A stretch of 64,000 bases of DNA, taken from the NCBI GenBank assembly GCA_043740415.1, contig JAYUCJ010000152.1, positions 2,758-66,757 of the forward strand, given 5' to 3'. Made by a program: the position numbers and the translations under genes. The stretch comes from Polaromonas sp. GTDB lineage: Bacteria > Pseudomonadota > Gammaproteobacteria > Burkholderiales > Burkholderiaceae_C. Each line of letters starts with the position of its first letter. Positions within the stretch are counted from its first letter, which is position 1. Shown piece after piece: positions 23,720-62,147 of this stretch. A model generated the notes under the pieces. It had not been told where the DNA came from, ran no database searches, and saw nothing but the letters and a program-made list of their open reading frames with translations.

Positions 23720-24469
23720 ATGCGTCTTCAAATTGCGATTTACTCACTTTTGATCCTAGCTCTTGCCGCTTGCAAGCCTAGCAACGAAATAGTGACAACT
23801 AAGGCTACTACTGAGCTAAAACCCGCGGCTTTGCCTACGGCGCCAATAAAAAAATCGGATTGGGAGAATGCAATAAAGGCGACTTACGAAAAAAGTCAAA
23901 TTAATACTGATAAAGAGGGTGTGACTGAGTTTGTGGCTTGCTTCCAAACCAAAGATGGAAATAAATGTACTGGGTCTGTGTTTGGAAAACACGATGTATT
24001 TCGTCACCTCACAATCTTTACACCAGCAAATTCGGAAAGTGCAGCTCTTGGCATATGGAAGTATCTTCATTCGTATGTATCGCTTATTGATTGCAAGCGT
24101 CCTAGTGTTCTACTATCACCTCATATCTTTTCGAAAGAAGGATGGCTATTTATGGATAAGGTGTCAGTTTTAGCTGACGGTGAATTACTTTTGGAACACA
24201 AATTCACAAGTACTGAGGTTGATCGCGATAACAATACATGGGGAATTGACGAAAGAGCGCATTGGGTAGCGTCAGACAATGATCTTAGCGCGTTAAAGCG
24301 AATTGCCAGTGCCAAAGTAATTATCGTCCGCCTTTCGGGTGCCAAGGGCTACGTCACTGTTGCTGAAAAAGATATTAGCCGCATTAAAGAAGACTTCAAA
24401 AGCGTACTAGCAATATATAGCGTGCTCGATGCCGCCGCAGCTAGTAAAGAACCAGCTGAGTGTATTTGA
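23720..24469 (+). CDS. Hypothetical lipoprotein (AT-rich island)
   Basis: 249 aa. Signal peptide with lipobox LALAAC. No family recognised. Confidence 0.55.
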   Translation: MRLQIAIYSLLILALAACKPSNEIVTTKATTELKPAALPTAPIKKSDWENAIKATYEKSQINTDKEGVTEFVACFQTKDGNKCTGSVFGKHDVFRHLTIFTPANSESAALGIWKYLHSYVSLIDCKRPSVLLSPHIFSKEGWLFMDKVSVLADGELLLEHKFTSTEVDRDNNTWGIDERAHWVASDNDLSALKRIASAKVIIVRLSGAKGYVTVAEKDISRIKEDFKSVLAIYSVLDAAAASKEPAECI

Positions 24470-24650
24470 TTGGTTATCTTCTATAACTCAGAGCTTAATC
24501 TCAATTTTGCTGATCAACCTAGTTCAAACCGCGTAACACTTGGTGGCAGGTTTTTTTTCGCTAGAAATCTTGATACGCGAAAAAAACCTAGAGCGACGAT
24601 TACATTAATCGGTAAAGCTCAGGCTTTCATTTCTTGTGTGAGGTGTATTT

Positions 24651-25667
24651 ATGATTTTTTATAAATATTACAGTTTTAGCTCAGGAATAGCTGCCCTTAG
24701 CAGCCAAAAGCTCGGTTTTCGGGAACCCAAATACTTCAACGACCCATTTGAGCTAAGTTACCTTAACAACTCCAGTGACTCAAATTTTATTGAAGACAAG
24801 ATGAACTCGCTAAAGAAGAGCCTAGTCATACTTTCATTAACTAAAACCTATAGCAACCCATTAATGTGGGCTCATTATGGAGAGGATCATAAGGGTTTCG
24901 TAATTGGTTATGACATTGACGATGATTTTTTTCTTTCTCAAAAATACAACGTTATTACAGCAGCCGAAGGTAAAGTTTCATATACCAATAAGAAAGAAAA
25001 AATCATAATTTCCGAAAAATTAAAAAATGTTTTACACGAAATTTACTTGATAGGAGAAGGCAAGATATCCAGCCACCTTAAATCGAAATTATTATTATCC
25101 ATTTTGAAGAAGGCACTTTTATACAAACACTCGTCATGGGCTTATGAAGAGGAAGTTAGAGTTATCAAAGTCTTAGATTCCAAATTCAAAGAATCTGAGG
25201 AGTGGCAATCCGACCCAAACAGAGCTTTTTCTTCATTTAGCAAATCTGTGGCTCCAGGAATTGAAACGATTTCAATTCCTGGACTTTACTTATTTAACAA
25301 GGAGGTAAAAATTAAAGAAGTCTACCTTGGCATGCGTAATCCTTTATTGAGTCCTCATATTCAAACAAGTGATCCGATTGAAAGTCGTGATATCTACGAA
25401 CAGTCTAAAAAGCATTCGTGGTGCGTAAAAAAAATGTCTATGGCTAGCGGCTCTTGGGAGCTTGAAGGCCATGATATAAATCGTGAACTATTAATGATTC
25501 GAAAGCAGACTAGAGGCCTTATTAGGTCATTGGCTTTTAGCGGCTTAGAGGCTGAGTACCTATGCAGGACTCTTCCGCTAAACTTGGATAGCGTTGAAGA
25601 TAGATATGAATTAACCAACTGGTATGACAGAATCGAGCTTAAAAGAAATGGTGAGTTTGTCACCTAA
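24651..25667 (+). CDS. DUF2971-family protein
   Basis: N-terminus FYKYYSFSS...LGFREPKYFNDPFE and SLTKTYSNPLMWAHYGEDHKGFVIGY are signatures I associate with DUF2971. Confidence 0.7.
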   Translation: MIFYKYYSFSSGIAALSSQKLGFREPKYFNDPFELSYLNNSSDSNFIEDKMNSLKKSLVILSLTKTYSNPLMWAHYGEDHKGFVIGYDIDDDFFLSQKYNVITAAEGKVSYTNKKEKIIISEKLKNVLHEIYLIGEGKISSHLKSKLLLSILKKALLYKHSSWAYEEEVRVIKVLDSKFKESEEWQSDPNRAFSSFSKSVAPGIETISIPGLYLFNKEVKIKEVYLGMRNPLLSPHIQTSDPIESRDIYEQSKKHSWCVKKMSMASGSWELEGHDINRELLMIRKQTRGLIRSLAFSGLEAEYLCRTLPLNLDSVEDRYELTNWYDRIELKRNGEFVT

Positions 25668-25880
25668 AAAGGCCTTAGTTTGTAAATTCTCACTCCGTCA
25701 ACCACCTCCTAGCCTCTTCTCTTTCTACTTAGTAAATAGCGTTTTTTTTGATCACACAAGTTAGCATGTACGTACTGATACTGACACTGACACTGACAAT
25801 AATATAAGTCCCCTTAAAAGTTCTAATCTTTATAAAAAACTACAATTGCTCGATAAGTTTTTAATAACCCAAGGATAATC

Positions 25881-26357
25881 ATGAAAATATTTGCAGGCAT
25901 CGTTGGCGGTCTAATTTTGGCCATCCTCGGAGCAATCTTCTTTACAGTTGGTGGCGCATCAAGCCCTGGACGCGGTAGTGGATTTGGTGCAATCGCATTC
26001 TGTGCATTCTGGATAGTTGGAATAATTGTTGCTGTAAAGGCCCCATCTCCAGCGAAAGCTTGGCGAAGATTACTGATAACATCTGCAATCGCTTCATTTA
26101 TGCTGCCACTAGCAGGAATCATATTTACGAGTTCACAAGTCGCAAATACTATCGAGAAAGGCGGCGAGTACGTTGAAGCAGCAGCAACTGGAGCCGCAAT
26201 TGGTGGAACACTTATCTCTGGTTTTATGGGATTTGTAGGTTTTTTTCTAGGATCAGTATTTCTAATTATTGGGTTACTCGTAGGTCGAGATAAACAGATA
26301 ATCTACATCCAATCGCCTCCGCAAAAACCAGATACTGAACCCGTCAATCACGTCTAA
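25881..26357 (+). CDS. Hypothetical 4-TM membrane protein (island cassette)
   Basis: 158 aa, Gly-rich TM segments. RBS-like aaggataatc lies before the ATG. No family recognised. Confidence 0.5.
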   Translation: MKIFAGIVGGLILAILGAIFFTVGGASSPGRGSGFGAIAFCAFWIVGIIVAVKAPSPAKAWRRLLITSAIASFMLPLAGIIFTSSQVANTIEKGGEYVEAAATGAAIGGTLISGFMGFVGFFLGSVFLIIGLLVGRDKQIIYIQSPPQKPDTEPVNHV

Positions 26358-53711: not shown

Positions 53712-55193
53712 TTGAGGATGTCAACGCAGATGTTATTTTTTCGCCCCGAAGTCATGCAGTCACAAGCCAGCCAATGGCTAGGCGTTGTACGCTTGCACAG
53801 ACCCTTGTCGTTCGGCTTGATCACTGCAACAGCCATCGGCGTTGCACTTTTGTGCATCACATTTGCAACGTGGGGCGAAGTCAACCGTAAATCACGCATT
53901 TCTGGCTTGCTCGTTTCTTCGTTAGGCAGCCTGAATATAGCCGCACCGCTGGCCGGTGTGTTGGTCGAAAGCCGGATTTCTGAAGGCCAAACCGTACAAG
54001 CGGGTGACGTGCTGTTCGTACTCAACACCGAGCGCCAAAGCACGGCGGGCGACACCAACGCCCTGACTCTGATACACATCGAAGCCCGCAAGCAAACCCT
54101 GAACACCGAGCGCGGCCTGCGCCAGCTGCAAACCAGTCAACGCAGCCAAGTGCTAGAAGACCGCATTCGCACGCTGAATGCCGAGCTATTGCGCCTAGAC
54201 GAAGAGCAAAACCTGCTAGAAAACCGCATCACCCTGTCCAAGAAGACACTTGCACGCAGCCAAAAATTAGCTTCCGAGGGCTTTTTGTCTGAAGCTCAAG
54301 TACAAACCAACCAAGAAGAACTCATAGACCTCAACAGCCGCCAACAAGCCCAAGCCCGCAGCAAACTCAGCACCCAGCGCGACCTACGCACACTCACTGG
54401 CGAAGCCGAAGGTCTAGCCACCCAACTCAAAGCAGATTTAAACCAGCTAGCGCGCAATGTGTCGCAGCTCAACCAAGAAGCCACAGAAACCACCGCCCGC
54501 AAAAGCACCCTCATCACCGCGCCCTACGCTGGCACCATCACCGCCTTTAACCTGCAAAACGGCCAAGCCGTGCAGGCGGGGCAAACCTTGGCGACGTTGG
54601 TGCGTACAGAAACCACATCTCCGATGCTCACCACAGAAAAAGTCAGGTTGAAAATCTCCGGCTACAAGATGACGACGTTACTTTCGACGCCAAAAAATAC
54701 CGTTCGCCCTGAGCCTAACATTCCATCCGTTCGCCCTGAGCCTGTCGAAGGGTTCACCGCCAAAGCAGAGCCACAAGCCCCGCAATCCCTCCAAGCCCAC
54801 CTCTACGCCCCCAGCCGCACCGCCGGCTTCCTCAAACCCGGCCAGTCCGTCTACATGCGCTACGCCGCCTACCCCTACCAAAAGTTCGGCCTACAAACCG
54901 GCCACATCACCGCCATATCCGCCACCCCCTTCTCCGCCAGCGAGCTACCCCCCAACATCGCCCAGCAGCTCATCGCGCAATCTGGCAGCAACGAAGCCCT
55001 CTTTCGCATCAACGTGCGGCTAGACCAGCAAACGATTACCAGCTACGGCGAGCCGCTGCAACTCAAAGCAGGGCTAACGCTAGAGGCCGATGTGCTGCAA
55101 GAACGCAGAAAGATATGGGAATGGGTGCTAGAGCCGCTGCTTGCGGCTAAGGCGCAATTGAAGGTTTTGAACTCGAATCCAAATAAAAATTAA
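53712..55193 (+). CDS. HlyD/CvaA-family membrane-fusion (adaptor) protein for peptide export
   Basis: FRPEVMQSQASQWLGVVRL + TM + lipoyl-like hairpin (ISEGQTVQAGDVLFVL) + long coiled coil + beta-barrel (APYAGTITAFNL..GQAVQAGQTLATLV). Carries an in-frame PAL element. Confidence 0.85.
   Translation: MRMSTQMLFFRPEVMQSQASQWLGVVRLHRPLSFGLITATAIGVALLCITFATWGEVNRKSRISGLLVSSLGSLNIAAPLAGVLVESRISEGQTVQAGDVLFVLNTERQSTAGDTNALTLIHIEARKQTLNTERGLRQLQTSQRSQVLEDRIRTLNAELLRLDEEQNLLENRITLSKKTLARSQKLASEGFLSEAQVQTNQEELIDLNSRQQAQARSKLSTQRDLRTLTGEAEGLATQLKADLNQLARNVSQLNQEATETTARKSTLITAPYAGTITAFNLQNGQAVQAGQTLATLVRTETTSPMLTTEKVRLKISGYKMTTLLSTPKNTVRPEPNIPSVRPEPVEGFTAKAEPQAPQSLQAHLYAPSRTAGFLKPGQSVYMRYAAYPYQKFGLQTGHITAISATPFSASELPPNIAQQLIAQSGSNEALFRINVRLDQQTITSYGEPLQLKAGLTLEADVLQERRKIWEWVLEPLLAAKAQLKVLNSNPNKN
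54700..54755 (+). repeat. PAL-family element (tandem left arms) in frame within hlyD
   Basis: ccgttcgccctgagcctaacattccatccgttcgccctgagcctgtcgaagggttc. Read as ...TVRPEPNIPSVRPEPVEGF... Confidence 0.8.
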
Positions 55194-55200
55194 TAAAAGC

Positions 55201-55698
55201 ATGAAGTATTTTCAAAAAATCCGCACCATCGTATTTTCAACTGAATTGCCTTTATGGAAATATTGCTTTCTGACATTTTGGATCTTTATCAGCGTATCGG
55301 TTATAGCCAATATTTTTATAAAAACATTAGCAGTATTTTTAACTATAAATTATGGACCTGAAGAAATTAAAACTAATTTATCGGTGATTGAATCAGTTGT
55401 TGTTAGCATAATCGTACCGTTTATAGAAACACTCCTTCTTGCGGTGTTTTTAATATTATTTAAAATAATATTAAAAAATAATATGTTTATAGCAATCATC
55501 ATTGCAATAGTTGCCGGATTGACACATTCAAAACAAGATTGGACACATTTTTTTATATACGCGGCTATGTTTTATTTATTTGCACTATTTTATTTAACAA
55601 GGTCAAAAATTTCTTTTGCCAATGGATTTATAGCTGCTTTTGTTCCACATCTGTTAAACAATTCAATGATTGCTCTATTTGCATATTATGATATTTAA
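55201..55698 (+). CDS. CPBP/Abi-like intramembrane protein (putative immunity), paralogue 1
   Basis: 165 aa, about 5 TM. PFIETLLLA (degenerate EExxxR), GLTHS, and FVPHLLNN (HxxxN). Ends ...YYDI like paralogue 2. 7-nt gap after the hlyD stop. Confidence 0.65.
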   Translation: MKYFQKIRTIVFSTELPLWKYCFLTFWIFISVSVIANIFIKTLAVFLTINYGPEEIKTNLSVIESVVVSIIVPFIETLLLAVFLILFKIILKNNMFIAIIIAIVAGLTHSKQDWTHFFIYAAMFYLFALFYLTRSKISFANGFIAAFVPHLLNNSMIALFAYYDI

Positions 55699-55773
55699 AT
55701 CTAAATTATAAATTCTGTTTTTACGCATTTGGCAGTAAATTTTTTATAAATGCGGTATTTAGAAAGAGTAGTT

Positions 55774-56031
55774 ATGAAAGAATTATCGATTGAAGATTTA
55801 GCAGAAGTCGCCGGTGGAGGAGCATTGACCACAGCTGGGAAATGGATGCTAAACCAACTTGCTGGCTGGGGATTTACGGAAGCAGTTGTCGAAGGCGTTA
55901 AATATGTAATGGACAATGAGGGCGGCTGGTTTACTCCTGGCGCTGCCAACGACGGTGGCGGTTCGTCTCCGTACGTTTGCGATGCTAACGGCTACTGCTA
56001 TACCAATAATCAGTATAGCTGCTCTGCATAA
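55774..56031 (+). CDS. Double-glycine-leader peptide 1 (class II microcin/bacteriocin-like precursor)
   Basis: 85 aa. The 15-aa leader MKELSIEDLAEVAGG is spaced like the ColV leader MRTLTLNELDSVSGG. About 70-aa Gly/Trp-rich core ending PYVCDANGYCYTNNQYSCSA. RBS-like aaagag upstream. Confidence 0.75.
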   Translation: MKELSIEDLAEVAGGGALTTAGKWMLNQLAGWGFTEAVVEGVKYVMDNEGGWFTPGAANDGGGSSPYVCDANGYCYTNNQYSCSA

Positions 56032-56051
56032 TAAATTTGCTTAAATAAAAA

Positions 56052-56075
56052 TCCAAAGATGTGCACATCTTTGGA
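56052..56075 (+). terminator. Perfect 12-bp-arm hairpin after the peptide 1 gene (no T-tract)
   Basis: tccaaagatgtg/cacatctttgga, 20 nt after the stop codon. Confidence 0.35.
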
Positions 56076-56099
56076 TAATACAACTTTAATATTACCAAT

Positions 56100-56327
56100 A
56101 TGCATAGAATGATTAGTGGAGTACTGTCGTTTATTAGAAGCAGTCAAACATCACCGTACAATACTTCTAATGCTATACAAACGGCAGTCTTACAGGCATA
56201 CGCAGCGCGCGTGAAACTAAGCAATGATACACATGGCGATACCGCACTACACATCAATCAACATATTCACAAACCAGCTCTCTCTGAAAACAGTGACTGC
56301 AAGCGCTTATGGCAGCAATATAGTTGA
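56100..56327 (+). CDS. Hypothetical 75-aa ORF
   Basis: Open frame in an AT-rich region. No motif, no TM, no obvious RBS. Confidence 0.25.
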   Translation: MHRMISGVLSFIRSSQTSPYNTSNAIQTAVLQAYAARVKLSNDTHGDTALHINQHIHKPALSENSDCKRLWQQYS

Positions 56328-56465: not shown

Positions 56466-57386
56466 ATGCGAATTTTAAATTTTTTATACATTACTTCTGC
56501 ATTAACGGTATTGGTTGGTTGTGTATCACCCATACAAACACCAGAAGAGGTTAGTAGAAATAATGACTTATTAGCTACTCAGATATTGCAATCAAAAAGC
56601 AAGAGCAGTCAAACTATACAAAATAAATCTCTCGATAATACTCCAACCATACAAAGGGTATCAGGTATTTACTTTGGATTAGCACTCGATGGTGTATCGC
56701 CAGCTTTTGAGGGTGATATTAAGCGAGTACAAAATTTATTTTTTGACGAAATTGCTAAGGGTCCTAGCTTGCTACTCAGCAATTCCGAAACAAATGAACA
56801 AATATACCCACGTGCGGATTTCAGAACCATCCCAGAGGCAGCAAAGGCTGTAGGGAATTACCGTGTTGAGCCCGATATCGGGTTAACAACACCGGGCCTA
56901 AAAGTGGTAGTTGTTTCATCACACGGCAGAGAAAAGCACTTGCGACTACGTGTAGGAAAAAATCGGATCCAAGGCGAAGTAAGTGATGCTTACCTCTTGA
57001 AACTACTTGCTGATATTGATGGCTCAAGCAAAACTCCTACGCTGTTGATTATTTCAGCCTGCCACTCGGGCTCTTTTATTCCACTTCTTGCTGCGCCCAA
57101 TAGAATTATCATGACGGCAGCAGCCAGTGATAAATTATCATTTGGCTGTGGCACAGATTCTAAAAATACGGCATTTACTGAACACTTACTAGATCAAAAC
57201 ATTGACACGAAATTATCATTGCACAATCTTTTTGATAGTGCTTTAAAACGTATTTCCGATTTTGAAATAAAAATGAAAATCGCAACCTCATCACCACAAA
57301 TATCTGTGGGTGCAAATATGCAGAGATTGTATGAAGCACGCATTGAAGAGTGGGATAAAATTTTAACCAAAGAAAGAAAAGATTAA
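56466..57386 (+). CDS. Lipoprotein, clan-CD cysteine peptidase (C13/legumain-like family)
   Basis: Lipobox LTVLVGC. His-Gly ... Ala-Cys dyad context VVVVSSHG...LLIISACHSGSFIPLL, followed by IMTAAASDKLSFGC as in bacterial C13-family proteins. Confidence 0.65.
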   Translation: MRILNFLYITSALTVLVGCVSPIQTPEEVSRNNDLLATQILQSKSKSSQTIQNKSLDNTPTIQRVSGIYFGLALDGVSPAFEGDIKRVQNLFFDEIAKGPSLLLSNSETNEQIYPRADFRTIPEAAKAVGNYRVEPDIGLTTPGLKVVVVSSHGREKHLRLRVGKNRIQGEVSDAYLLKLLADIDGSSKTPTLLIISACHSGSFIPLLAAPNRIIMTAAASDKLSFGCGTDSKNTAFTEHLLDQNIDTKLSLHNLFDSALKRISDFEIKMKIATSSPQISVGANMQRLYEARIEEWDKILTKERKD

Positions 57387-57396
57387 ATACAAATAG

Positions 57397-57645
57397 TTAA
57401 TTCCAAATTACTGTCCTATAAATGGCGGCAATACTCAATACCGAAATATACCAACCCCTGTCATTGCATCAATAGCGCAAGTATCCGCAAGAGCCCGAAA
57501 CGTGATGCCTAGTAATGATGCTAACGGTGATACCGCGCCATACTGCAACCAATACTCTCACAAAGCAGTTGCGTCTAAAAACGGTGACCGCAACGGTTTA
57601 GGTCAGCAATACAGTTGGGGAACTTGGTGGGATGATACGAATTGA
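57397..57645 (+). pseudogene. Start-less paralogue of GG-leader peptide 2
   Basis: The frame opens right after a TAG: LIPNYCPINGG-NTQYRNIPTPVIASIAQVSARARNVMPSNDANGDTAPYCNQYSHKAVASKNGDRNGLGQQYSWGTWWDDTN. The core is homologous to 58371-58631, but there is no ATG/GTG/TTG or RBS before the GG. Confidence 0.6.
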
Positions 57646-57742: not shown

Positions 57743-58237
57743 ATGCAGAGTATCGCAAAAATTTACGGTTTTTTAATTTCTAACAAAATTTCATTCCCAA
57801 AATATATCGGCATTGTATTTTTAATAGAATTATTGTCAGCCATATTTCTTGCTTTACTTGTTTTTGTTTTCATTGACATCTTTGATTTAAATTACGCCGC
57901 ATTTCCTGAGCACGATTTATCTTGGGGAACATTTTGGAAGGGAGTCGTTTTTGCACCTACTCTTGAAACCTATTTATTGATTTTAACTTTGCATATTTTG
58001 CGAAGTTTCGACATTCAAGGTTTAAAACTTGCAAGTATTGCTGCCATATTCTGGGGCGCATTACATGGGGTTCAAAGTTGGCCTTGGTTTTTTGCACCTG
58101 CATGGATATTTTTCATCTATTCAACGGCTTACGAAACATGGCGTTTGACATCTTTTAAGAAAGCTTATTTTGCCGCTGCTATTCCGCATGCTCTGAATAA
58201 TTTGGTAGCCCTGTTCGCTAATAGCTACGACATCTAA
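57743..58237 (+). CDS. CPBP/Abi-like intramembrane protein (putative immunity), paralogue 2
   Basis: 164 aa. PTLETYLLI, GALHGV, IPHALNN. Ends ...SYDI. The stop TAA overlaps an ATG (TAATG) that begins a relic of the ABC gene. Confidence 0.65.
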   Translation: MQSIAKIYGFLISNKISFPKYIGIVFLIELLSAIFLALLVFVFIDIFDLNYAAFPEHDLSWGTFWKGVVFAPTLETYLLILTLHILRSFDIQGLKLASIAAIFWGALHGVQSWPWFFAPAWIFFIYSTAYETWRLTSFKKAYFAAAIPHALNNLVALFANSYDI

Positions 58238-58313
58238 TGCGCGTCATCATTCAATCCGAAGCCAGCGAATGCGCGCTGGCTAGTTTGGCTATGGTTTGCA
58301 GTGCGCATGGGCT
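58237..58313 (+). pseudogene. 77-nt duplicate of the 5' end of the C39-ABC exporter gene
   Basis: atgcgcgtcatcattcaatccgaagccagcgaatgcgcgctggctagtttggctatggtttgcagtgcgcatgggct is identical to 59649-59725 except for one base. Homology stops abruptly afterwards. Confidence 0.85.
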
Positions 58314-58370: not shown

Positions 58371-58631
58371 ATGGAGCAACTTAATAAATCAACATTGTCA
58401 TTAATATTGGGGGGCAATAACGTCCCGGGAAAAGTGCCGGCAGCTGTACTCGCATCAATGACGCAAGTATCCAGTAGAGTAAGTGATACATTACGGATTA
58501 TGAATACGCATGACGATGCCGCGCCATACTGCAATCAATATTTACACGTGGCTATTGCTCCAAAAAACGGTGACCGCAACGCCTTGGGGCAGCAATATAG
58601 CTGGGGCACTTGGTGGGATGATACACATTGA
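58371..58631 (+). CDS. Double-glycine-leader peptide 2 (class II microcin/bacteriocin-like precursor)
   Basis: 86 aa. Strong RBS aaaggagg 7 nt upstream. The 15-aa leader MEQLNKSTLSLILGG has hydrophobic residues at -4, -7 and -12. Core ends GQQYSWGTWWDDTH. Confidence 0.75.
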   Translation: MEQLNKSTLSLILGGNNVPGKVPAAVLASMTQVSSRVSDTLRIMNTHDDAAPYCNQYLHVAIAPKNGDRNALGQQYSWGTWWDDTH

Positions 58632-58797: not shown

Positions 58798-59649
58798 ATG
58801 AAAATTCTTCCAACCGATTTCGATGGTCAATCTATCCGCCGCGTGTATGACGAGGACACTGAAATGTGGTGGTTTTCTGTGGTGGACGTGGTGCAGGTGC
58901 TGACGCAGCAGGCTGATGACTTGACGGCTCGCAAGTACTGGAATCAGCTGAAACGCAGGCTTGAGAATGAAGGCAGCCAACTGGTGACAGACTGTCACCA
59001 GTTGAAAATGACAGCGGCAGATGGCAAACAACGCTTAACAGATGCTGCAAGCGCCGAAACTTTGCTGCGTCTCGTTCAATCCGTCCCCAGCCCCAAAGCT
59101 GAACCCATCAAACTGTGGCTAGCTAAAACTGGCTATGAGCGTATGCAAGAAATGGCAGACCCTGCGCTGTCTTTGAATCGTGCCCGCGAAACGTGGGAGC
59201 AACATGGGCGTAGCGACAAATGGATTCAGCAACGGATGACGGGACAGGAAACCCGCAACAAATTGACTGACTATTGGCGTGAGCACGATGTCAAACCTGG
59301 TCAAGAGTTTGCTATTTTGACCAATATCATCCACCAAGCTTGGACAGGCGTAAGCGTCAAAGAGCACAAAACTGCTAAGAATCTGACTAGCCATAACCTG
59401 CGCGACCACATGACTGAAGCAGAGCTTATTTTTACAGCTCTGGCTGAGCTATCTACGCGGCAGATTGCAGAGAACCGCCATGCAACGGGTTTACCCGAAA
59501 ATGCCACGGCCGCCAAAGTGGGTGGCAGTATTGCACGCCAAGCACGTCAGCAGCTAGAAAGCGAAACGAGCAAATCAGTGGTGACTAGCAGCAACTACTT
59601 GCCGCCAAAGAATACTAAGCTTCTCAAGCCCCAAAAACCGTCACCTTAA
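58798..59649 (+). CDS. Bro-N domain protein (DinD / phage antirepressor-like)
   Basis: FDGQSIRRVYDEDTEMWWFSVVDVVQVLT is a Bro-N signature. 283 aa. The stop overlaps the ABC start (TAATG). Confidence 0.7.
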   Translation: MKILPTDFDGQSIRRVYDEDTEMWWFSVVDVVQVLTQQADDLTARKYWNQLKRRLENEGSQLVTDCHQLKMTAADGKQRLTDAASAETLLRLVQSVPSPKAEPIKLWLAKTGYERMQEMADPALSLNRARETWEQHGRSDKWIQQRMTGQETRNKLTDYWREHDVKPGQEFAILTNIIHQAWTGVSVKEHKTAKNLTSHNLRDHMTEAELIFTALAELSTRQIAENRHATGLPENATAAKVGGSIARQARQQLESETSKSVVTSSNYLPPKNTKLLKPQKPSP

Positions 59650-61763
59650 TGCGCATCATCATTCAATCCGAAGCCAGCGAATGCGCGCTGGCTAGTTTGG
59701 CTATGGTTTGCAGTGCGCATGGGCTGCAGGTGGATTTGGCGGATTTGCGGCGGCGGTTTGTGGTGTCTATCAAGGGCGCTACCATGCAGCAGCTGGTGCA
59801 GCATGCGGATGGGCTGAACTTTAGCTCACGCCCGCTGCGGTTGGAGCTGGATGAGCTTAGCCAGCTTCAACGGCCCTGCATTTTGCACTGGGGGCTGAAC
59901 CATTTTGTGGTGTTGGTCAAGGTGCGTAAGAACCACATCGTGATTTACGACCCTGCGGTGGGTGAGCGGCGGGTGGTGATGGAAGATGTGTCGCGGCACT
60001 TCACGGGTATTGCGCTGGAATTAACGCCGAATGCCAGTTTTGAGCCTAGCGACCAGCGACAGCGGGTGTCGCTTGCGGCGCTGACTGGTAAGGTGCTAGG
60101 GCTGAAGCGTTCGATGTTTCAGATATTTGCATTGGCCATGGTGTTGCAGCTTTTTGCCATTGCCGCACCGCTGTTGAACCAGCTGGTGGTGGACGATGCG
60201 ATTGCGACGTATGACAAAGATTTACTCTCGGTGCTGATTGTTGGTTTTGCCTTGCTGATGTTGATTCAGACTTTGCTGGGCTTGGCGCGTAGCTGGATGG
60301 TGATGGCGCTGAGCATGTCGCTTAGCCTGCAGTGGACGAGCAATGTGTTTAGCCACCTGCTGAAGCTGCCGATTGAGTATTTTGAAAAACGGCATTTGGG
60401 CGATGTGGTGTCGCGCTTTGGGTCTGTCAATACGATTCAAAAAACGCTGACAAGCAGCTTGATTGAAGCGGTGCTGGACGGGTTGATGAGCGTTGCCGCA
60501 CTGGGCATGATGCTGCTATATTCGCCGCTTTTGGCCGCCGTGGTAGTGGGCGCGGTAGTTATCTATGCGCTTTTACGCTGGGCGATGTACAAACCTTTTC
60601 GTGATGCGAGTGCGGAGCGTTTAGTGGTAGCTGCTAAAGAGAATACGCATTTTCTAGAGTCGCTTCGCGCCATCACGCCGCTGAAACTCTTTGGGCGTGA
60701 AAACGAGCGCCGCGCACGCTGGCAAAACCTGCTGATTGATGTACAAAACCGCGACATCAAAACCGCCAAAATGGGCATCGCGTTCAGCACGGCAAACACG
60801 TTTATTTCTGGCATTGAAAACTTGGTGGTACTTTGGTTGGGGGCAGGTTTGGCAATGCAAAGCTCGCCACAAGGACAAAGCAGCTTCACCATTGGTATGC
60901 TGTTTGCCTTCATCAGCTACAAAGGGCAGTTTTCTAGCCGCATGGCGACCTTGATTAACTACTTTGTTGAAATCAAAATGCTGGGCTTGCATGCAGAGCG
61001 TTTGGCAGATATTGCGCTGACTGAGCCTGAAAAAGACGCCGTACCTGACAACACGTTGCAGCATCTTGAACCCAAAATTGAACTCAAAAACGTAAGTTTT
61101 CGCTACGGGGAAGGTGAGCCTTGGCTACTGAAAGAAACCAACGTGGTGCTCAACGCCGGGGAAAGCGTGGCGATTGTGGGGGTGAGTGGCTGCGGTAAGA
61201 CGACTTTGTTGAAGCTTATTTTGGGTTTGCAGCAAGTGGTGGAAGGGGAAATTTTGTACGGTGGCATCCCCGTCAAACAACTGGGATTACAAAATTACCG
61301 CAAATTGATTGGTACGGTGATGCAAGAAGATGTTTTACTGGCTGGCAGCATTGCAGAAAATATCAGCTTTTTTGATGTTCACTTTGACATGGAGCGGGTG
61401 CAAACATGTGGTCAACTCGCGGCAGTGCACGACGACATTGCGCGTATGCCTATGGGCTACCAAACTTTGGTGGGGGATATGGGTTCTGCTTTGTCGGGCG
61501 GGCAAAAACAACGTGTTTTGCTAGCCCGCGCTTTGTACAAACAGCCGAAAGTGCTGGCTTTGGATGAAGCGACCAGCCATTTAGACATCACCAATGAGAG
61601 ACGAGTGACACAAACTTTGACGCAAATGAGCTTGACCCGCATCATTGTGGCGCACAGGCCCGAGACGATTGCTGCGGCGCAGCGGGTGATTGCTTTAGAG
61701 AATGGAAAAATAATTGAGTTGCGACCGGCAGCAGCGTTTGAGAGCTTACAAGAAGCGGCATAA
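59649..61763 (+). CDS. Peptidase-C39-domain ABC transporter (PCAT, CvaB-like bacteriocin/microcin exporter)
   Basis: N-terminal C39 domain QSEASECALASLAMVCSAHG (catalytic Cys) ...HFVVL. 6-TM domain. Walker A GVSGCGKTT, signature LSGGQKQR, Walker B VLALDEATSHLD. Confidence 0.9.
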   Translation: MRIIIQSEASECALASLAMVCSAHGLQVDLADLRRRFVVSIKGATMQQLVQHADGLNFSSRPLRLELDELSQLQRPCILHWGLNHFVVLVKVRKNHIVIYDPAVGERRVVMEDVSRHFTGIALELTPNASFEPSDQRQRVSLAALTGKVLGLKRSMFQIFALAMVLQLFAIAAPLLNQLVVDDAIATYDKDLLSVLIVGFALLMLIQTLLGLARSWMVMALSMSLSLQWTSNVFSHLLKLPIEYFEKRHLGDVVSRFGSVNTIQKTLTSSLIEAVLDGLMSVAALGMMLLYSPLLAAVVVGAVVIYALLRWAMYKPFRDASAERLVVAAKENTHFLESLRAITPLKLFGRENERRARWQNLLIDVQNRDIKTAKMGIAFSTANTFISGIENLVVLWLGAGLAMQSSPQGQSSFTIGMLFAFISYKGQFSSRMATLINYFVEIKMLGLHAERLADIALTEPEKDAVPDNTLQHLEPKIELKNVSFRYGEGEPWLLKETNVVLNAGESVAIVGVSGCGKTTLLKLILGLQQVVEGEILYGGIPVKQLGLQNYRKLIGTVMQEDVLLAGSIAENISFFDVHFDMERVQTCGQLAAVHDDIARMPMGYQTLVGDMGSALSGGQKQRVLLARALYKQPKVLALDEATSHLDITNERRVTQTLTQMSLTRIIVAHRPETIAAAQRVIALENGKIIELRPAAAFESLQEAA

Positions 61764-61767
61764 AAAA

Positions 61768-62147
61768 TGTGAAGCTCGCCGATACGCCGGATTTTGTGCG
61801 GCACAACCCGAAAGCTGCGCCGTGACCGTCATTCATCTTGGCCTTGGGTCACCCCAAGGCTCGGTGCTACCTACCCGCCATCTCTCTTAGCGAACCGCCA
61901 AGTGAGACGATTCGGCGAACCTAGTCACCTCTGGATGGCCTATTTGGTATTGCTGCGCGTAGAGATTGCCCGTTTCACCCGCTATGAGTTTCCCCATAGC
62001 GACTCGTCTCTGTTGCTCTGATCCTCACCTTATATCTTTCGACTTTCAGTGGGCAGCCGTTAGCTGCTACGCTGTCCTATGCAGTCCGGACGTTCCTCCA
62101 GTGCTTGGTTTCCCAAATTGCACCAGCGACGGCCTAGCGAGCTTCAC
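61768..62147 (-). ncRNA. rnpB: RNase P RNA, bacterial type A
   Basis: The reverse complement reads GAAGCTCGCTAGG...GGAGGAACGTCCGGACTGCATAGGACAG...CAGAGCAACAGAGAC...GGTGAAACGG...CAAATAGGCC...AGATGAATGACGGTCAC...ACAAAATCCGGCGTATCGGCGAGCTTCAC. This matches the P1/P4 and universally conserved blocks of E. coli M1 RNA. Confidence 0.9.

Follow-up and report, generated by a model that had tools for sequence, protein, structure and literature searches.

A candidate class II microcin-like peptide gene in a strain-variable export island of a freshwater Burkholderiales-type bacterium

What is made by a short gene that lies between the adaptor gene and the exporter gene of a peptide-export system, and is its product a toxin? 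The question is raised by pep1, an open reading frame (ORF) at positions 55774-56031 (+ strand) of a 64,000-nucleotide stretch of Polaromonas sp. contig JAYUCJ010000152.1, which was analyzed as a whole and is called the window here. Class II microcins are defined by a Gram-negative producer, a peptide of about 5-10 kDa, export by a peptidase-containing ATP-binding cassette transporter (PCAT) together with a fusion protein and TolC, an adjacent gene for a small inner-membrane immunity protein, and an antibacterial effect of the exported product (PMC12219008). Judging by sequence and surroundings, we hold with moderate confidence that pep1 encodes the precursor of a new bacteriocin that resembles class II microcins and has immunity of the CPBP type.

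The ORF is a real gene under constraint. Its translation, MKELSIEDLAEVAGGGALTTAGKWMLNQLAGWGFTEAVVEGVKYVMDNEGGWFTPGAANDGGGSSPYVCDANGYCYTNNQYSCSA, has 85 residues and was reproduced exactly as originally predicted. The only close relative, P0002 (87% identity), is encoded on a 1.4-kb Logan contig (L002), and the two genes differ by 10 synonymous and 8 non-synonymous substitutions, with a ratio of non-synonymous to synonymous rates (dN/dS) of 0.21 overall and 0.17 for the core alone. Their sole difference in length is an in-frame indel of 15 nt, that is, five codons. In the alignment of the two contigs, similarity drops sharply just past the hairpin that follows the gene, and the region downstream decays. 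An in-frame ATG at 55750 was considered as an alternative start and rejected: all six of the more distant loci of the family, which we name pepA, have a stop codon 0-7 codons before the MK... start, and an equivalent of the upstream ATG is shared by L002 only. The start is therefore placed at 55774, where it is preceded by a Shine-Dalgarno-like site, GAAAGAG/AAAGGAAAG. An antisense ORF at 55701-55949 was likewise discarded as non-coding, since both the substitutions and the in-frame indel follow the + strand frame.

The first 15 codons (55774-55818, + strand) specify what reads as a canonical double-glycine (GG) leader, MKELSIEDLAEVAGG, in line with the claim that had first drawn attention to the gene. 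The consensus derived from structures for leaders of PCAT substrates is L(-12)xxxE(-8)L(-7)xxxxG(-2)G(-1), with a docking helix at positions -10 to -4 (PMC6959990). The pep1 leader, with M-15, L-12, I-10, D-8 (next to E-9), L-7, V-4 and G-2 G-1, fits it, most directly at L-12, D-8, L-7, V-4 and the glycine pair, and these positions are invariant or conservatively replaced in all eight family members; M1, K2, L4, G14 and G15 do not vary at all. In a low-confidence AlphaFold2 model, residues 6-12, corresponding to positions -10 to -4, form a helix. When the 15-residue leader pattern was sought among ORFs of 35-150 codons in all six frames of the window, three matches were found against a mean of 0.2 in shuffled sequence: pep1, a second GG peptide at 58371-58631, and an ORF on the antisense strand of the adaptor gene that is an artefact. 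The glycine pair is followed by a third glycine in pep1, and the original prediction had for this reason called the cleavage site ambiguous. Comparison of relatives settles the matter in favor of cleavage after G15, because the residue after the pair is S, N, I or K in other members, so that the third glycine is not kept, while G14-G15 is invariant; G15|G16 is thus the supported site. In hydrophobic register the leader is the same as that of ColV.

Beyond the leader, pep1 resembles little that has been described. A word-indexed search of 5.8 billion proteins returned two clusters of relatives, an exhaustive HMMER search of 1.84 billion representatives added four distant true relatives, and a profile search extended the family to eight clusters with lengths of 77-95 residues. 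Searched with the peptide, 185,579 species-representative genomes contained no pepA member; the PLSDB plasmids gave no match to pep1, and the IMG/VR viral contigs none to pepA or to pepB, the partner family described below. Pfam and NCBIfam yielded no match at E<=0.01. A threshold of E<=10 brought up only sub-threshold matches confined to the leader (Bacteriocin_IIc (PF10439), Mersacidin and ComC), all far below their cut-offs, and a sequence search of PDB gave chance matches only. The core is accordingly as free of recognized homologues in Pfam, NCBIfam and PDB as had been supposed, and a clear match to a non-bacteriocin family, which would have spoken against a toxin, was looked for and did not appear. 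To judge from these searches, pep1 founds a family that is very rare and has not been described before.

The members of this family share the leader MKxLS(I/F)(E/D)(D/E)..(V/I)xGG, an N-domain that ends in (V/I)EGxKYxMDxEG, in which E40, G41, Y44, M46, D47 and G50 are invariant, and a Gly/Ser-rich linker. Their tails are of two types, either Cys-x5-7-Cys ... (Y/F)SC-x2-3 or ...PTGGTYG(C/H)xW; one member, P0009, has no Cys. An 81-residue GG-leader peptide encoded upstream of pepB in a sister allele (L097:196-441) aligns with the pepA profile in leader and N-domain (hhalign probability 76%) but has neither EGxKYxMD nor a Cys tail, and perhaps represents a distant pepA branch.

The predicted pep1 core (55819-56031, + strand, with the stop codon) comprises 70 residues and has a mass of 7325 Da and an isoelectric point of 4.05. 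It begins with an N-domain that carries the motif VEGVKYVMDNEG, continues through a Gly/Ser linker and closes with a tail of three Cys that ends in ..NNQYSCSA. With 12 Gly, 3 Trp and 3 Cys, it is acidic, Gly-rich and moderately Trp-rich, which agrees with its first description as a Gly/Trp-rich peptide, if less so for Trp; the three-Cys tail noted at the same time is retained in most relatives. The amphipathic character ascribed to the N-half is barely borne out, the maximal hydrophobic moment there being 0.39 (residues 30-47). We suggest that the conserved N-domain, with a helix at about residues 18-32 and a beta-hairpin carrying EGxKYxMDxEG, would be the active module that an immunity protein recognizes, and that the variable Gly/Ser linker and Cys tail would serve in target recognition. 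Of the cysteines, C69 and C75 are likely to close a loop, with the third standing alone 3-4 residues before the C-terminus.

A leader of this kind calls for an exporter, and the window contains one, although not where it was expected. Rather than immediately adjoining pep1, as the original prediction had it, the PCAT gene lies 3.6 kb downstream (59649-61763, + strand), and the adaptor gene lies upstream (53730-55193, + strand). The PCAT combines C39, transmembrane and nucleotide-binding domains (Pfam Peptidase_C39, E 7e-33; ABC_membrane; ABC_tran), and the catalytic-type residues Cys12, His85 and Asp101 of its C39 domain are intact. Its closest counterparts, at 95% and 67% identity, are from Comamonadaceae and Burkholderiales genomes (metagenome-assembled genomes and Roseateles among the nearest loci), and the PCAT neighborhood is seen in all related pepA loci that are long enough to show it. 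Because the island is mobile, these counterparts place the host only approximately. The adaptor is an HlyD-type membrane-fusion protein (Pfam HlyD_3, HlyD_D23 and Biotin_lipoyl_2) that matches the NCBIfam models type_I_hlyD and NHLM_micro_HlyD below their cut-offs. Across the alleles of the island in which these genes lie, the PCAT is 94-99.7% and the adaptor 84-89% identical. Within the adaptor gene, positions 54700-54830 encode a Pro/Glu-rich linker with a duplicated VRPEP motif (..NTVRPEPNIPSVRPEPVEG..), which varies in length and sequence between alleles.

Between the adaptor gene and pep1 lies the gene for CPBP1 (55201-55698, + strand), a CPBP/Rce1-like polytopic membrane protein of 165 residues. 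Its match to the Pfam Rce1-like model is weak (E 0.002; 18.8 bits, under the cut-off of 22.4), and its motif 1 reads ET and not EExxxR; the family residues E76, H109, H150 and N154 (Glu, His, HxxxN) are nevertheless invariant in nine homologues. A CPBP1 homologue is found directly upstream of every pepA-family gene. Compared with L002, CPBP1 has a dN/dS of 0.13, and the G+C content (GC) of its gene is 0.277. Abi/CPBP proteins give self-immunity in Gram-positive class II bacteriocin loci. Microcin immunity genes, for their part, encode small membrane proteins and adjoin the toxin gene (PMC12219008). By analogy with the former and by the adjacency rule for the latter, CPBP1 is a candidate for the protein that protects the producer. 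A second CPBP-like membrane protein, CPBP2, is encoded at 57743-58237 (+ strand) by a gene that normally abuts the exporter gene: an identical copy is present in locus L098, and an 80% identical copy in L003 directly abuts the exporter gene.

The presence of a conserved immunity-like neighbor also bears on whether the peptide is a toxin at all. PCATs export signaling GG peptides as well (PMC7018657), and pep1 might be an exported but non-toxic peptide that acts as a signal or pheromone, as a decoy, or as an accessory to neighboring bacteriocins. We regard this as very improbable. At 70 residues the core is long for a pheromone, neither a sensor kinase gene nor a response regulator gene lies in the island, a membrane immunity-like gene of its own adjoins pep1 and is conserved with it, and the combination of a variable C-terminal module with a conserved N-domain is typical of toxins under diversifying selection by their targets.

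Measured against the definition of class II microcins, pep1 has a core of 7325 Da, a GG leader, a linked PCAT and adaptor, and a Gram-negative producer, the last indicated by the Comamonadaceae/Burkholderiales relatives of the PCAT, by the HlyD-type adaptor and by a lipoprotein with a lipobox; its charge and high Gly content agree with the class as well. It does not qualify as a class IIb siderophore microcin: instead of the Ser-rich C-terminus of that class it has a tail ending in ..NNQYSCSA, and the interval from 53.7 to 61.8 kb contains no glycosyltransferase, esterase or MceIJ-type genes.

Whether pep1 would act by itself is a separate question, which is raised by the second GG-peptide family of the locus, pepB. 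Three pepB sequences are present in the window, all on the + strand. The copy next to pep1 (56100-56327) is decayed: its GG motif is lost, the C-terminal WGxWWDD is missing, and the L002 counterpart has stop codons. A second remnant (57397-57645) has no start codon and a stop just upstream of what remains of the leader. The third, pep2 (58371-58631), is intact, encodes 86 residues and lies 2.3 kb downstream. A kinship between the cores of pepA and pepB was considered and rejected, as hhalign aligns the leaders only, with a probability of 3%. A pepB sequence accompanies pepA in every pepA locus, and most pepA members have three Cys, while one Cys is conserved in most pepB members.

It is thus conceivable that pep1 and pepB form a two-peptide bacteriocin, as complementary subunits or as a disulfide-linked heterodimer, and that pep1 alone is inactive. 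An intact pepB follows pepA in the same cassette in seven of the eight pepA clusters, the lineage of the window keeps an intact pepB despite the decay of the adjacent copy, and three plus one cysteines make an even total. The same association looks different from the side of pepB, which is found in every island allele, including those without pepA and C13 (L095-L100 and L103-L106), which is the only peptide of the minimal allele L098, and which therefore seems self-sufficient. Because pepB is in every allele, its co-occurrence with pepA discriminates only weakly. Furthermore, pepB comprises 42 clusters as against 8 for pepA, pepA is under purifying selection in two members of the lineage in which the adjacent pepB decays, the cysteine arithmetic fails for P0009, which has none and whose partner has one, and the pep1 core contains no GxxxG motif. 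We consider a two-peptide bacteriocin unlikely, if worth keeping in mind, and return to pep1 as a bacteriocin in its own right.

The most unusual neighbor of pep1 is a gene for a lipoprotein of the peptidase C13 family (legumain-like, clan CD) at 56466-57386 (+ strand). The protein matches Pfam Peptidase_C13 (PF01650) with an E-value of 1.7e-9 and 38 bits (cut-off 22.8) and has the lipobox LVGC. The match to legumain is weak and spans the region of the catalytic Cys; the catalytic motifs His153-Gly154 and SAC199xSGS (A198-C199) are invariant across C13 homologues, and the lipobox is kept. A single-sequence AlphaFold2 model reached a mean predicted local distance difference test (pLDDT) score of 32, and the fold is not confirmed by it. 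The gene is tightly linked to pepA. In a sample of about 106 fetched loci, it occurs in six of the seven pepA clusters with a locus of sufficient length, and its start is preserved as a fragment in L002, whereas none of the roughly 95 other PCAT loci has it. The one pepA locus without it is L089. Homologues in Acinetobacter baumannii and Methylobacterium stand in housekeeping or unrelated contexts and are uninformative on function, and a scan of JGI metagenome contigs with the C13 alignment gave one distant, unrelated match only. In the literature that we searched, no paper connects microcins or PCAT loci with peptidase C13 or legumain.

Such a linkage invites the idea that the peptide is processed further after export, by the C13 lipoprotein, by the Rce1-like CPBP protein or by both, and that the product is a fragment or a cyclized or ligated peptide. 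Candidate sites for hydrolysis or transpeptidation are the invariant Asp47 (MD|NEG), an Asx 5-7 residues from the C-terminus, and the Cys-x-x tail. The confinement of the C13 gene to pepA loci and its invariant His-Gly and Cys motifs would fit such a role. So would several features of the substrate: Asp47 is followed by Asn in four of the eight members, tails of the type ..Y-x-[ND]-x-G-[YF]-S-C bring an Asx close to the C-terminus, and a Cys lies 3-4 residues from the end of a peptide encoded beside a CAAX-protease-like gene. In plants, C13 enzymes are known to cyclize peptides. The route of export, however, speaks for another role. Type I export normally bypasses the periplasm, and a periplasmic C13 lipoprotein would therefore mainly meet peptide that has been re-imported, which favors self-protection, that is, immunity. 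Self-protection is also favored by the other secreted hydrolase-like proteins in sister cassettes, since the TraB/PrgY-type proteins found there suggest a general defense of the producer rather than specific tailoring. In addition, L089 does without the C13 gene, and the N-terminal residue of the core varies, unlike the preference of head-to-tail ligation. We assign further processing a low probability and keep to a core that is simply cleaved from its leader.

The gene is also framed by two structured elements. The stretch after it was described at first as a perfect 12-bp hairpin. A perfect 26-nt palindrome is indeed there (56051-56076, + strand; -14 to -16 kcal/mol, z -4.3 to -4.7), but its fold is a stem of 11 bp closed by a loop of 4 nt. 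A hairpin follows pepA in all eight loci, with compensatory changes in 5 of 13 pairs; where only one side has changed, a G.U wobble results on the + strand. A U-run comes after it in L002, while a terminator scan of the window found a T-run on the minus-strand side only. Because of this we call the element a candidate attenuator or mRNA-stability hairpin and not a proven terminator, although termination is among its candidate functions.

The other element precedes the gene (55710-55771, + strand). It is 62 nt long and specific to pepA, and it contains two 7-bp helices that interleave, ATTCTGY/GCAGWAW and CGCATTT/AAATGCG, with GAAAGAG after them. In the alignment of eight loci, compensatory changes occur in four pairs and pairing holds in 98% of cells, as compared with at most 48% pairing in controls with a slid 3' partner. 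The element is more strongly conserved than the pepA peptides themselves, and nhmmer finds it across the roughly 106 loci only upstream of pepA genes. Possible readings are a pseudoknot in the RNA, two hairpins that form alternatively, or two operators in the DNA. Neither element is represented in Rfam. Taken to its furthest, the combination of a dedicated C13 lipoprotein, possibly with the Rce1-like protease, in maturation or self-immunity and of control by a structured 5' RNA would make pep1 the first of a new kind of Gram-negative ribosomal toxin. We find this doubtful; if it were true, such a C13-dependent toxin would extend the microcin paradigm by a step that depends on a protease or transpeptidase.

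What the sequence shows is a real gene under constraint, its leader, the cassette with its co-occurrences and the conserved flanking elements. For the microcin-like peptide that we favor, we envisage a pathway whose steps, from cleavage and export to toxicity and immunity, are inferred, as is the part played by the protease. The 85-residue precursor would dock by its 15-residue GG leader on the C39 domain of the exporter encoded at 59649-61763 and be cut by this domain after Gly15. The acidic core of 70 residues would leave through the PCAT and the HlyD-type adaptor, presumably together with a TolC-type channel encoded elsewhere, and CPBP1, encoded upstream, would shield the producer. The C13 lipoprotein would be a family-specific accessory, most likely a periplasmic protease that destroys re-entering peptide and less likely a maturation enzyme. 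The 5' element and the 3' hairpin would set the level or the stability of the pep1 transcript.

Several points weigh against this picture. Pfam, NCBIfam and PDB offer no homology between pep1 and a validated microcin or bacteriocin, and the AlphaFold2 model of pep1, built on the eight-sequence alignment, has a pLDDT of 56 and so serves for secondary-structure hints alone. A scan for sigma-70 promoters found no convincing + strand site 5' of pep1, and its total count equals the shuffle expectation. No TolC-type gene was found in the island, to which the search was limited; in known microcin systems, TolC is usually unlinked. To our knowledge, no described microcin locus has a protease lipoprotein tied to its peptide, and the C13 link could mean that the mature product is something other than the core left by leader cleavage alone. 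Finally, pep1 may not act alone, since it always co-occurs with a pepB-family peptide.

The surroundings of pep1 are consistent with a locus that exchanges its cargo. On the + strand of the window, the order is adaptor, CPBP1, pep1, decayed pepB, C13, second pepB remnant, CPBP2, an insertion of 1412 bp, and PCAT. The order in the pepA cassettes is adaptor, CPBP-like gene, pepA, hairpin, pepB, C13 lipoprotein and PCAT, with pepB after C13 in one locus, and one pepA cassette was found on a contig that resembles a plasmid and encodes Rep3, ParA, a relaxase and a coupling protein. The insertion contains pep2 and the gene for a Bro-N domain protein (58798-59649, + strand; Pfam Bro-N). It is bounded by a direct repeat (58235-58313 and 59647-59725, 99% identity), the left copy of which is a 79-nt duplicate, on the + strand, of the junction between the CPBP2 stop and the exporter start, with a truncated ORF that encodes an N-terminal fragment of Peptidase_C39. 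In L003 and L098, CPBP2 directly abuts the exporter gene. The insertion looks like a cassette that entered by recombination at the 5' end of the exporter gene.

At the same chromosomal site, between the conserved adaptor and exporter genes (53.7-61.8 kb), at least six different cargo alleles are found, and the cargo has a GC of 0.36, as compared with 0.52 for the window. One sister allele has 98.5% identical flanking DNA, a 99.7% identical PCAT and wholly different cargo. Among the cargo of sister alleles are an AAA_21 ATPase, proteins of the TraB/PrgY/GumN type, and the peptide families MRILTTSDLxYVSGG... and MKILTTSDLYYITGGDDGG.... The leader is all that at least four unrelated cargo families of the island have in common, as expected of alternative substrates for a single exporter. 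On this comparative evidence, the locus is a strain-variable, hypervariable putative bacteriocin island in a freshwater Burkholderiales-type betaproteobacterium. Just past the exporter gene, at 61767-62145 on the minus strand, lies a gene for a bacterial class A RNase P RNA (Rfam, 200 bits), which marks the right-hand boundary of the island on the chromosome. Elsewhere in the window, positions 24000-26000 have a low GC (0.388 as compared with 0.52), with ORFs of 338 codons (24651-25667) and of 249 codons for a putative lipoprotein (23720-24469) in this region; this segment may be another acquired islet.

Among the closest parallels to the locus are the class IIa microcins of Enterobacterales (microcin V/ColV, MccL and MccN; PMC12219008). 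They, too, are acidic, Gly-rich peptides of about 7 kDa from Gram-negative bacteria with cysteines in the C-terminal part, and their loci likewise have clustered PCAT and HlyD-type adaptor genes, an adjoining gene for a small membrane protein, and no genes for siderophore modification. However, there is no similarity between the cores, and the host is a freshwater bacterium of Burkholderiales type and not one of the Enterobacterales. The locus further differs in having a CPBP/Rce1-like immunity candidate instead of a Cvi-type protein, a C13 lipoprotein, a second GG peptide, an odd number of cysteines in the toxin candidate, and a multi-cargo island in place of a single-toxin operon.

In its architecture the island also recalls Gram-positive loci, such as blp of pneumococci and the plantaricin and sakacin loci, where several unrelated GG peptides share a PCAT, CPBP/Abi proteins are neighbors, strain-variable cargo lies between conserved transporter genes, and some peptide genes have decayed. 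The pepA island departs from them in its Gram-negative envelope and HlyD-type adaptor, in peptides that are acidic and not cationic, in the absence of a linked quorum-sensing two-component system, and in its C13 accessories (TraB/PrgY in sister alleles). As in the class IIb two-peptide bacteriocins of lactic acid bacteria, two GG-peptide genes of similar size adjoin each other and a membrane immunity-like gene; here, however, many alleles have pepB without pepA, GxxxG is missing, and the adjacent partner is decayed.

Bacteroidetocins, class II microcin-like peptides of Bacteroidaceae, are missed by pipelines trained on microcins (PMC12219008). They share with pep1 a length below 100 residues, a 15-residue double-glycine leader, a location near a PCAT and an origin outside Enterobacterales, but differ in phylum and in the composition of the cassette. 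With the processing of plant peptides by legumain, or asparaginyl endopeptidase, the locus has in common a C13 gene dedicated to a small Cys-containing peptide with a conserved Asx. The likeness is at the level of the family only; the enzyme here is a bacterial lipoprotein, and a role in immunity is at least as likely. Unusual in the locus are its family-specific C13 lipoprotein, a CPBP-type immunity candidate in a Gram-negative setting, the structured elements that flank pep1, and an island that exchanges cassettes.

Class II microcins have only lately been recognized as widespread and diverse, and those that have been validated stem almost all from Enterobacterales, with single cases from Acinetobacter and Vibrio (PMC12219008). 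Against this background, pep1 is a well-delimited and evolutionarily supported candidate from a freshwater Burkholderiales-type bacterium, with a core sequence unlike anything known. The C13 lipoprotein, linked only to pepA, poses the concrete question of whether it provides proteolytic immunity or matures the peptide. Near-identical exporters that are combined with different sets of toxin and immunity genes, as found in this island, offer a natural system for the study of bacteriocin turnover in environmental biofilm communities.

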